Positions 474 to 1,703 of a stretch of DNA of 11,141 bases are shown piece by piece. The DNA lies in the IMG/VR virus record IMGVR_UViG_2778261591_000002, positions 1 to 11,141 of that record. One strand, written 5' to 3'. Each line of letters begins with the position of its first letter. Within the stretch, counting starts at the first letter, position 1. The notes beneath the pieces are model-generated. The model did not search any database. It saw nothing but the letters and a program-made list of their open reading frames with translations, and was not told where the DNA came from. A program made the translations under genes and the position numbers. The DNA comes from a virus. Lineage: Duplodnaviria; Heunggongvirae; Uroviricota; Caudoviricetes.

Positions 474-533
474 ACGTGCATATTTAAATATTGCACGTTA
501 CAACGTGCATGTGTATGATTGACTTATCAATCA
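474..533. promoter_or_regulatory. Operator-like dyad-symmetry array overlapping a putative sigma70 promoter for the downstream 335-aa gene
   Basis: Half-site TGCACGT occurs three times in alternating orientation: ACGTGCA 474-480, TGCACGT 492-498, ACGTGCA 503-509. It forms a perfect 18-bp palindrome TGCACGTT-AC-AACGTGCA (492-509) and a larger near-palindrome 474-498 around TATTTAAATA. A second, unrelated palindrome TGATTGA-CTTA-TCAATCA lies at 516-533. Possible -35 TTGCAC (491-496) and -10 TATGAT (514-519) with 17-bp spacer; promoter assignment is weak. Confidence 0.4.
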
Positions 534-550
534 CAACACGAGATATGCTC

Positions 551-1558
551 ATGAAAAATGATGATGTTAGTGGGAAGGCCAAAGGCGGTAAGGCACGCGC
601 GGCAAAAATGACAGCAGAGCAAAGAAAAGAATCCTCAAGAAAGGCTGTTGCCGCAAAAAAAGAAAAAGCTTTATTGCCCGTATCTGCGAATGAGGGAAAG
701 TTAAAGATCGGTGATGCGGAATTAGATGTCGCGGTTCTCGAAAATGGACGGCGTATCATATCACAAGCTTCTGTTTTTAAAGCATTTGGCCGACCACAAA
801 GAGGGGGTAGAGCACCTCAAGAAGAGGGGGTGATCAATATGCCCGCTTTTATGGATGCTGCAAACCTTAAAAAATATATAAATCAAGATGTTATGGATGT
901 GATCAATAAGGTCAAATACAAGACGATTACTGGCTCCGTCCAGGAAGGTTATGACGCATCCATAATACCTCTTGTCTGCGATGTTTATTTAAAGGCAAGA
1001 GAGGCAGGCGCTATCACCAGGCCAAACCAGTTAGAGACAGCCAAGAAAGCTGAAATTCTGGTGCGCTCATTAGCTAAAGTCGGAATAATAGCGCTTGTTG
1101 ATGAAGCGACGGGGTACCAGCGAGATAGAGAAAAAGATGCGCTCGCCAAAATACTCGAGGCCTTTGTCGCAAAGGAAATTCAACCTTATATTACAACATT
1201 TCCTGCTGATTATTATGAAGAGCTTTTCAGGTTAAGGGGCTTAGAATACCCGCCGGAAAATCCCCGCTTCCGGCCTCAGTATTTTGGCGTTTTGACAAAT
1301 GATATCGTCTACAAGAGATTGGCACCAAACATCCTTGAGGAGCTTAAAAAGCAGAACGTAAAGGCCTCAAAAGGTACAAAGTTGTTTCAGGGGCTGACGC
1401 CAAATATTGGATATCAAAAATTAAGAGAGCATCTGTCATCAACCGTTACGATTATGAAGCTATCTAACGACTATTCAGATTTTATTGCAAAAATGAATCG
1501 CCTGCATCCAAGGTTTGAGGATGTGAAAACAGACGAACTGGATGATTCAGACAAGTAA
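551..1558 (+). CDS. Hypothetical phage accessory protein (335 aa from ATG 551) with Lys/Arg/Ala-rich N-terminal tail; possibly P63C-like C-terminal domain; function unknown
   Basis: Long ORF in the track (491..1558). The first ATGs (491, 509) lie inside the operator palindrome, so I prefer ATG 551 (weak GAGA 7 nt upstream) or 545. N-terminus KAKGGKARAAKMTAEQRKESSRKAVAAKKEK is a basic, nucleic-acid-binding-like tail. The body is visibly more A+T-rich than flanking genes. Followed by two intrinsic terminators. The P63C assignment is from memory only and is tentative. Confidence 0.6.
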   Translation: MKNDDVSGKAKGGKARAAKMTAEQRKESSRKAVAAKKEKALLPVSANEGKLKIGDAELDVAVLENGRRIISQASVFKAFGRPQRGGRAPQEEGVINMPAFMDAANLKKYINQDVMDVINKVKYKTITGSVQEGYDASIIPLVCDVYLKAREAGAITRPNQLETAKKAEILVRSLAKVGIIALVDEATGYQRDREKDALAKILEAFVAKEIQPYITTFPADYYEELFRLRGLEYPPENPRFRPQYFGVLTNDIVYKRLAPNILEELKKQNVKASKGTKLFQGLTPNIGYQKLREHLSSTVTIMKLSNDYSDFIAKMNRLHPRFEDVKTDELDDSDK

Positions 1559-1563
1559 CAGTA

Positions 1564-1587
1564 ACCCACCTTCAGGTGGTTTTTTTG
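1564..1587 (+). terminator. Rho-independent terminator (first of a tandem pair)
   Basis: GC stem CCACC/GGTGG (1566-1570 with 1575-1579), TTCA tetraloop, then a 7-T run (1580-1586), immediately after the stop codon at 1556-1558. Confidence 0.65.
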
Positions 1588-1652
1588 TACAAATCCTTCA
1601 GAGTAAGTTTACCTCCTTCACTGCATTACTACTGACCATTGACAACTTAACA

Positions 1653-1676
1653 AACCCAGCTTCGGCTGGGTTTTTT
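1653..1676 (+). terminator. Rho-independent terminator (second of a tandem pair)
   Basis: Perfect stem ACCCAGC/GCTGGGT (1653-1659 with 1664-1670), TTCG tetraloop, T run 1670-1675. Confidence 0.65.
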
Positions 1677-1703
1677 ATTGGTGAATTTTCAATATGAGAG
1701 GAC

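Follow-up and report, generated by a model that had tools for sequence, protein, structure and literature searches.

Morons are phage inserts, each consisting of a promoter, a gene and a terminator, that lie between genes which are adjacent in related phages, a concept that came from comparisons of HK97 and HK022. Among insertion sequences (IS), the IS1 family has a separate DNA-binding regulator, InsA. The P63C domain (PF10546), named after p63 of Myxococcus phage Mx8, is said to have been defined in a survey by Iyer, Koonin and Aravind in 2002, and our literature search found incidental mentions of it only, without experiment. BstA, which prophages encode, acts in abortive infection and has a KilA-N-like domain at its N-terminus, and aba is a 63-bp self-immunity element made up of 29 bp upstream and the first 34 bp of bstA, with direct CCCGCC repeats (PMC8585504). 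Here we compare with these systems a P63C-family gene found in an 11,141-nucleotide (nt) stretch of DNA from a Caudoviricetes record (IMG/VR IMGVR_UViG_2778261591_000002, positions 1 to 11,141), the whole of which was analysed and is referred to below as the window. The gene and its flanking signals form a cassette that is a horizontally acquired single-gene moron in the ninE-roi slot of a lambdoid prophage, with upstream sites that are conserved across relatives and statistically coupled to the N-terminal tail of the protein.

Insertion, boundaries and distribution of the cassette

Comparison with two relatives allowed us to delimit the insert. Window positions 1-401 (97% identity) and 1689-3267 (92%) are collinear with HK97, in which dam, ninE, ninF and roi follow one another without gaps; between these flanks HK97 has 242 bp (the rest of ninE plus ninF) and the window 1,287 bp. 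Relative to the HK97 arrangement, the insert cuts ninE and stands in place of ninF. JEONG-1266, an O157:H7 prophage, matches window positions 1-401, then 1609-1712, then 1689-2439, and carries ant, a hypothetical gene and ninF in the slot. Because the JEONG-1266 match places 1609-1688 in the ant module, the acquired unit is 402-1608. The features of the insert and its junctions are:

402-1608, plus strand: acquired P63C cassette of 1,207 bp (promoter/operator region, gene and terminator T1), missing in HK97 and JEONG-1266 between matching flanks
551-1558, plus strand: P63C-family gene, 335 amino acids (aa) plus stop
1566-1587, plus strand: T1, the cassette's own weak intrinsic terminator, a 5-bp GC stem (1566-1579) plus U7
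324-425, plus strand: truncated ninE of 33 codons, whose match to ninE of HK97 and JEONG-1266 stops at 401/402, the left insert junction
1609-1688, plus strand: what is left of an ant (P22AR-C) gene, its 3′ end with the strong terminator T2, 93% identical to the ant end in JEONG-1266
1652-1673 (stem), U-run to about 1680, plus strand: T2, the terminator from the ant relic, called strong on its fold energy
1689-1712, plus strand: 24-nt junction before and into roi, present twice in the JEONG-1266 prophage

The ninE stump has about 26 native codons and then runs on to a stop at 425, while the full gene is present in HK97 and JEONG-1266. At the other end, the 24-nt segment 1689-1712 is likely a recombination joint. 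About 500 E. coli genomes share only a 66-72-nt T2 piece, where it is the end of intact ant genes; in the window, T2 is a leftover from earlier ant cargo. A reading made earlier from the sequence alone had drawn the cassette at 474-1680 between dam and the nin/Q genes. Its distinct acquired unit holds up, with limits moved to 402-1608 and with 1609-1688, including T2, assigned to the ant module; the roi-to-Q genes do flank the insert, and the left neighbour is the truncated ninE rather than dam directly. Both terminators had also been called strong. Six terminator-like sites lie in 300-2000, against 1.9 ± 1.5 in shuffled sequences; T2 deserves the description (−16 kcal/mol, z-score −3.9, none of 200 shuffles equally good), whereas T1, with its 5-bp stem, is marginal (−8.6 kcal/mol, z-score −1.3, 20 of 200 shuffles equally good). 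A terminator directly after the stop codon is also found in relatives of the gene.

The cassette is present in 49 of 5,426 complete E. coli genomes, 923 of which carry the window's roi allele, and in 17 of 50,697 phage records (933W, BP-4795, Lahn1, Nil3 and other Shiga-toxin (Stx) phages) at 99.2-100% identity. It is 99.9% identical to that of 933W, while window positions 1-2439 as a whole are only about 95% identical to that phage; cassette flanks are 91-98% identical against at least 99.2% for the cassette itself. No E. coli carrier has a disrupted copy of the gene, and its conservation among them is at least 99%. We consider the gene cargo rather than core because a near-invariant insert sits between flanks that have diverged, and because the slot has at least three alternative contents. 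Thus the earlier proposal of moron cargo in a variable slot is borne out, with HK97 lacking the insert and JEONG-1266 carrying ant instead, and across the dam-to-rusA interval the gene is neither universal at its site nor uniform in composition. The cassette has flanks that are adjacent in the related phage HK97, a 3′ terminator and a deviating base composition: its guanine-plus-cytosine (GC) content is 0.422 (402-1608) against 0.491 in the rest of the window, and GC at third codon positions is 0.40 in the P63C gene against 0.44-0.57 in neighbouring genes, in line with the greater A+T richness that had been noticed.

Start-codon assignment for the gene differs between sources. The mechanically called open reading frame, 491-1558, begins with TTG and encodes 355 aa, ATG 551 gives 335 aa, and RefSeq starts the same gene at ATG 509 (349 aa). 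We prefer ATG 551 to the RefSeq start because the N-termini of 38 homologues line up with it and ATG 509 falls within the predicted promoter; from ATG 551 to the stop at 1558 it gives the 335-aa protein that had been described from the sequence alone.

Upstream operators and the N-terminal tail

Upstream of ATG 551 lie perfect inverted repeats at 474-480/492-498, 492-499/502-509 and 516-522/527-533, which together with a predicted promoter agree with the earlier claim of an own regulatory region at 474-533. The elements of this region are:

474-509, no strand: operator-like cluster of three TGCACGT/ACGTGCA half-sites (474-480, 492-499 and 502-509), including the perfect 8+8 palindrome TGCACGTT-AC-AACGTGCA
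491-519, plus strand: predicted sigma-70 promoter, read from the sequence, with −35 TTGCAC (491-496), a 17-nt spacer and −10 TATGAT (514-519)
516-533, no strand: second palindrome, TGATTGA-N4-TCAATCA, overlapping both the −10 and the predicted +1

Of the three half-sites, the second shares bases with the −35 hexamer and the third sits in the spacer; transcription is predicted to start near 526. In the 61,670-bp genome of 933W the heptamer TGCACGT/ACGTGCA occurs four times (7.4 expected), three of these occurrences being this cluster, with no other cluster. Other targets of the motif were sought and rejected, there being none in 933W and no enrichment in the window. Conservation reaches well beyond this phage: TTGCACG and ACGT.CA are invariant in nine loci (Enterobacterales, Xenorhabdus, Chromobacterium, Janthinobacterium and viral contigs; four genera) whose proteins are 53-73% identical to the window protein, and relatives have TTGCAC followed at similar spacing by TATAAT, TATATT or TATACT. 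Several of the nine loci also have a terminator just upstream, and the unit is therefore insulated on both sides. At the place of 516-533, relatives have another palindrome, GCTCGT...ACGAGC, so that the position is conserved and the sequence is not. A hairpin in the 5′ untranslated region formed by 516-533 is doubtful, since the left arm, lying partly in the −10, would be missing from the transcript.

The protein belongs to a very large family. Its P63C-like character, guessed in the sequence-only reading, is confirmed by the Pfam model (84.3 bits against a cutoff of 26.1, E = 9e-24, residues 201-291 on model positions 1-93 of 93), which all 141 aligned relatives also match, and residues 3-334 align to positions 2-337 of the 338 in PHROG 2384 ('unknown function', E = 1.8e-146). 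The same gene is L0095/ST933Wp35 of Shiga-toxin phage 933W, annotated 'P63C domain-containing protein'. Calling the protein undescribed was accordingly mistaken, only its function being so, and our search for literature on L0095 of 933W found none. The family comprises more than 7,600 clusters at 90% identity, a lower bound, and 4,901 representatives at 50% identity (E up to 1e-3), 1,180 of them with E below 1e-30. Full-length genome matches at 41-70% identity come from Gamma-, Beta-, Alpha- and Deltaproteobacteria, Actinobacteria (including Mycobacterium), Chloroflexi and Acidobacteria, and further from Planctomycetes, Chlamydiae, Bacteroidota, Ignavibacteria and Gemmatimonadota. The NCBIfam library gave nothing meaningful, with only a sub-threshold PIN match (E = 0.0056), and a sequence search of the PDB with the single protein and a 38-sequence profile had UbiX at E = 0.5 as its sole hit.

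A structure model built from 38 close homologues had a predicted local distance difference test score (pLDDT) of 71, and one built from 141 diverse homologues reached 92.3, with a predicted template modelling score of 0.73. It divides the protein into three parts:

551-676, plus strand: basic two-helix tail, residues 1-42 (GGKARAAKMTAEQRKESSRKAVAAKK), with helices at 9-19 and 22-40 (pLDDT about 95)
677-1021, plus strand: alpha/beta domain, residues 43-157, the most variable part of the body, with weak matches to a Bro-N-like or winged-helix-like fold
1022-1510, plus strand: conserved all-helical core, residues 158-320, with the P63C stretch (residues 201-291) at bases 1151-1423

The tail has 13 Lys or Arg against 5 Asp or Glu in residues 1-42 and an isoelectric point of 10.4, as expected from the basic N-terminal tail described earlier; alone, it has no Pfam match. 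In the model, residues 44-151 form three strands, a helix, loops, a hairpin and a helix, and the core consists of a very long helix (158-187) followed by seven helices up to residue 318. Across the family alignment, mean identity to the window protein is 34% for residues 43-157 and 59% for 158-200, the most conserved stretch, which holds the near-invariant motif GIIALVDEATGYQxxR at 178-193; other near-invariant polar residues are R68, Q160, R227 and Y254. A Walker A/B reading of GKAKGGKA and IIALVDEA was rejected, as the family consensus is without GK[ST] and the region is helical. Foldseek searches of viral models with the whole protein matched Mx8 p63 in BFVD (E = 6e-10), then Bro, KilA and 'repressor domain' proteins at E of 0.01-0.5, and the fold of residues 43-157 weakly matches Bro proteins, a KilA protein, the Swi6 N-terminal domain and winged-helix domains. 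The profile search for KilA-N and Bro-N that had been suggested gave no sequence match, whether for residues 41-177 against Bro-N (PF02498) and KilA-N (PF04383) at E up to 10 or for the 141 family members against the Bro-N, KilA-N and ANT models at E up to 0.1, and hhalign against a 3-sequence Bro-N alignment returned a probability of 0.3%. Because of these null results, we call residues 43-157 Bro-N-like at most, and in fold only, and give the helical core no assignment.

The large family also allowed us to ask which part of the protein varies with the operators. The motif set comprised 127 dereplicated loci, each represented by 162 nt, of which 150 precede the gene and 12 are its first bases, with random windows from the same loci as controls. 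Among repeated words, ATGCTTGCA and its complement were the commonest. At least two copies of TGCA-N-G-[CT] are found in 75 of 127 loci but in 2.2% of control windows, and at least three in 53 loci against 0.24% of controls. A recurring layout has one copy in reverse, one forward about 21-24 nt on and another in reverse about 30 nt further, and relatives of many phyla have three to four upstream copies. The motif differs by group, being TGCACGT in enterobacterial loci, TGCACGC in a scattered group and TTAGCAT palindromes in a Pasteurellaceae-type group.

We then used 329 alignment positions as predictors of operator type, TGCA-A-G (45 loci) or TGCA-C-G (12 loci). The two best predictors are both tail residues. 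Residue 28 is Ile in 39 of 45 A-type and in none of 12 C-type proteins (Ser in 9, Ala in 3; p = 2.6e-8), and residue 20 is Leu in 43 of 45 A-type and 3 of 12 C-type proteins (Met in 9 of the 12; p = 1.2e-6). Residue 29 and an indel at 40 come next (p of about 0.002), and the best position outside the N-terminal segment, 154, has p = 0.006. Judged by body sequence, 7 of the 12 C-type proteins are closest to an A-type protein, and the pair of tail and operator has therefore been switched or exchanged several times. A third class, with Arg28 and a tail lacking helix 1, is paired with TTAGCAT palindromes. Elsewhere the tail is replaced by a transposase-type Zn-ribbon (proteins P0205 and P0227) or, in 3 of 141 alignment members, by a Cro/CI-type helix-turn-helix (HTH_3), which suggests that the N-terminal position is a swappable DNA-binding slot. 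The basic tail is probably an operator-reading head, with the upstream sites as its operators.

Relatives, proposed function and rival explanations

In unrelated prophages, P63C-family genes occupy classic moron positions and are always alone. The gene lies between early-left genes and the immunity region in Chromobacterium, directly 3′ of a CI-type repressor gene and in the same orientation in Achromobacter, and on a chromosomal island in the Pseudomonas fluorescens group. In P. aeruginosa prophages it is inside the tail-gene cluster on the opposite strand, and one variant has it beside Arc, a P22-type antirepressor and a superinfection-immunity gene. In Morganella prophages it is found among tail genes and, in one, adjoins Arc and a P22-type antirepressor. 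Taken together, these P. aeruginosa and Morganella loci are L169-L171 (7001-8038), L172 and L173 (both 7001-8017). Downstream genes of 82 and 154 aa in Pseudomonas and Achromobacter were considered as small partners and discarded, as they lack the tail motif.

Insertion sequences are a second vehicle of the family. Of 80 genomic loci, 20, drawn from many phyla, have a divergent gene for an IS1-like DDE transposase that shares an operator-filled intergenic region with the P63C gene; the transposase gene encodes about 275-320 aa, begins on the opposite strand about 30-400 nt (in most cases about 90-150 nt) upstream, and matches NF033558 at 54.6 bits, under the 100-bit cutoff. Both genes are enclosed by IS1-type inverted repeats of GGTAGTG type (GGTAGTGG.TCA.TTT.AA). 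Three units of 2.2-2.36 kb are bounded by 8-9-bp direct duplications (AGGAAACC, CGGCATTT and GCCGGACAA) and, because of these target duplications, are transposed elements. Each has three genes, for the IS1-like transposase, the P63C-family protein and a convergent protein of about 75 aa:

L058, 5009-7356: transposed IS1-family element, GGTAGTG-type inverted repeats, three genes
L086, 5017-7232: the same
L036, 4978-7338: the same
L035 and L084: further elements of this type

We found no description of this three-gene type in a literature search. The convergent gene lies 20-30 nt downstream of the P63C gene in at least 12 loci, and the C-terminus of its product repeats the P63C tail motif, GGKARAxxLSPExRSEIAKKAAxxRW. 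The full pattern, MxKPKRPRDxNQLAKxIVDxATGE...GGKARAxxLSPExRSEIAKKAAxxRW, is found for example in L073 (2645-2869, minus strand), with equivalents in L035, L040, L049, L058, L065, L071, L080-L082 and L084; no Pfam model matches this IS-borne protein. It belongs to a family of its own with thousands of members (77-91% identity), most of them encoded on short contigs from metagenomes and some labelled 'histone H1'. Pairwise identities of transposase and P63C protein are uncorrelated (r = −0.01, Mantel p = 0.52), and the P63C module is therefore exchangeable rather than a co-evolving subunit; the same result ruled out the transposase as an obligate partner.

There are several possible explanations for what the cassette does. 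We propose, with about even confidence, that it is an autoregulated moron, a foreign promoter-gene-terminator module in which a P63C DNA-binding protein represses its own promoter and the two remaining domains are the effector. The protein would act in three parts (basic two-helix tail, Bro-N-like alpha/beta domain, and conserved helical core including P63C), of which the tail, probably as a dimer or higher oligomer, would bind the three TGCACGT half-sites. Self-repression is proposed because these sites overlap the predicted promoter of the gene at its −35 hexamer and spacer, and it would keep expression steady and low, independently of the lytic programme and also in the lysogen. Together with the inherited T2, T1 would insulate the downstream roi-Q genes from cassette transcription, and could also stop rightward pR transcripts that are not antiterminated before they reach roi-Q, as in other nin regions. 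The Bro-N-like domain and the helical core would form the effector. An exclusion or defence role is plausible, and the positions after a CI-type repressor and beside superinfection-immunity and immI-like genes are compatible with an exclusion gene expressed in the lysogen. More tentatively, and with doubt prevailing, the effector may act in conflicts between mobile elements in the manner of BstA, binding and blocking invading or replicating DNA, with the upstream sites doubling as self-recognition. A wider and improbable extension is that P63C proteins might form a pan-bacterial single-gene conflict system of prophages, islands and IS1-type elements. Here a 30-residue two-helix head would read a TGCA-type 'name tag' at its own promoter, the tag would set the level and mark self in the way that aba does for BstA, the Bro-N-like and P63C body would attack or block non-self replicating DNA, and Ile28/Ser28/Arg28 would be a re-programmable code.

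Several observations weigh against the autoregulated moron. Sequence features are what lead us to infer an active promoter, a tail that binds the sites, and repression. A consensus promoter scanner did not flag TTGCAC-17-TATGAT, because the −35 has just 3 of the 6 consensus bases. Operators and tail codons are no more than 150 bp apart, and a co-inherited 5′ block, in place of a recognition code, could explain part of the association between them. No known defence model of PADLOC v2 matched the window protein, apart from one spurious match (E = 0.0064) to a type I specificity subunit, nor did any match the ten neighbours in other loci. Finally, family members are also carried by IS1-type insertion sequences, and this suggests a role that serves the element itself rather than a phage.

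This last point is the basis of the explanation that the module is IS-derived and selfish, the P63C protein being an accessory or regulator of IS1-family transposition, through shared operators or through the choice or processing of target DNA, and the phage copy a hitch-hiker. The divergent transposase gene at a shared operator region in a quarter of genomic loci, the inverted repeats around both genes with duplications which prove that a 2.2-2.4-kb unit transposes, and the transposase-type Zn-ribbon that replaces the tail in some members all speak for it. We nevertheless regard it as unlikely for the window copy, which has no transposase, IS1-type inverted repeats, target duplication or small partner gene; the only small open reading frame downstream (1598-1753, minus strand) lacks the tail motif. 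The transposase is missing at 60 of 80 genomic loci and at all phage loci examined, the absence of co-divergence is that of an exchangeable passenger, and the gene has stayed intact in every E. coli carrier. A further candidate is a toxin-like addiction gene, whose toxic core would be kept in check by autorepression or, in IS elements, by the small convergent protein with the shared tail. Tight autoregulation is typical of addiction modules, the convergent gene recurs at its at least 12 loci, and the near-invariant D184, E185, T187, Q190, R193, R227 and Y254 could be a catalytic or ligand-binding site. We find it very improbable, however, as there is no partner gene in the window or other checked prophage loci, toxin-family similarity does not go beyond the sub-threshold PIN match, and the all-helical core has no recognisable nuclease or nucleoside triphosphatase fold.

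A phage developmental regulator of the Ant/Roi/Rha kind, acting as an antirepressor or transcription factor on the lysis-lysogeny switch of its own or a co-resident prophage, is another explanation. The gene's slot holds ant in other prophages and adjoins roi (Rha-N plus KilAC in Pfam), relatives stand beside Arc/Ant immI-like genes in Morganella and Pseudomonas prophages, a DNA-binding N-terminal part with a variable C-terminal module is the Bro/KilA/Ant/Rha architecture, and the weak fold matches include Bro, 'repressor domain' and 'regulatory' phage proteins. Yet the gene is missing from the normally growing close relative HK97 and is therefore not needed for development, its recognition heptamer forms no other cluster in 933W, the family is present in IS elements and non-phage islands, and the Bro-N, KilA-N and ANT models match none of its 141 members; we think this explanation clearly unlikely. 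The autoregulated moron remains our preferred reading.

That the family has been picked up independently by unrelated prophages and insertion sequences suggests a benefit to mobile elements in general. The location of the gene between dam and roi in 933W-type Shiga-toxin phages gives it a medical context. What is new here is the operator set, the proposed reading head with its correspondence of residues and bases, and the link to a three-gene IS1-type element; the predicted operators, head and residue-base pairs offer a testable entry to a very large family. If the effector has an exclusion function, a very common system would be added to the defence catalogue; a role as an accessory of transposition would instead define a three-gene IS1-family branch not described before.

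The surrounding prophage and comparison with known systems

The window covers the late-early to late part of a lambdoid prophage, with the order dam (partial), ninE stump, P63C gene, roi, ybcO, rusA, ninH, Q, two tRNAs, lysis genes, a Rha-type gene, terminase and portal. The tRNA genes, tRNA-Asn (GTT) and tRNA-Thr (TGT), lie at 3845-4000 between Q and the holin gene, and an Rfam scan of the whole window found these two only, with none in the cassette. At the Q-holin position 933W has tRNAs and stx genes, while the window prophage is without stx there. Just after Rz, at about 5803-6321, is a gene for a Rha-N plus ORF11CD3 protein, preceded on its 5′ side by about 340 bp without a convincing gene; it may be another moron. 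The window thus holds three modular proteins of the Bro/Rha/Ant class, namely the roi product, the P63C protein and the Rha-N plus ORF11CD3 protein.

Compared with PF10546 as described, the window protein extends well beyond the model, which spans residues 201-291 only and leaves the tail, the alpha/beta domain and the most conserved stretch, 158-200, outside any model. It shares with the Bro-N/KilA-N/Ant/Rha phage DNA-binding proteins the same modular logic and the weak fold matches of residues 43-157, and differs from them in having no sequence-level match and in that sequence reading seems to reside in an extra N-terminal tail. With the IS1 family, the likeness is in relatives that lie inside elements with IS1-like ends, 8-9-bp duplications and an IS1-like transposase; the window copy lies outside such an element, and the elements carry two extra genes beyond those described for IS1.

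Analogous to BstA and aba, the cassette is a single prophage gene of about 300 aa with an N-terminal DNA-binding part and a cognate DNA element just 5′ of the start (both putative here); like BstA (PMC8585504), the protein has residues highly conserved across Proteobacteria, and one P63C relative lies just 3′ of a repressor gene. The two proteins have no sequence relation, neither PADLOC nor Pfam KilA-N matching the P63C protein, and the P63C sites are inverted and of TGCA type in place of the direct CCCGCC repeats of aba. The cassette resembles the lambdoid morons in its insertion between flanks contiguous in HK97, promoter-like region, terminator, lower GC content and patchy distribution, and it differs from them in an elaborate operator set that is conserved family-wide and in a P63C module that also travels in insertion sequences.

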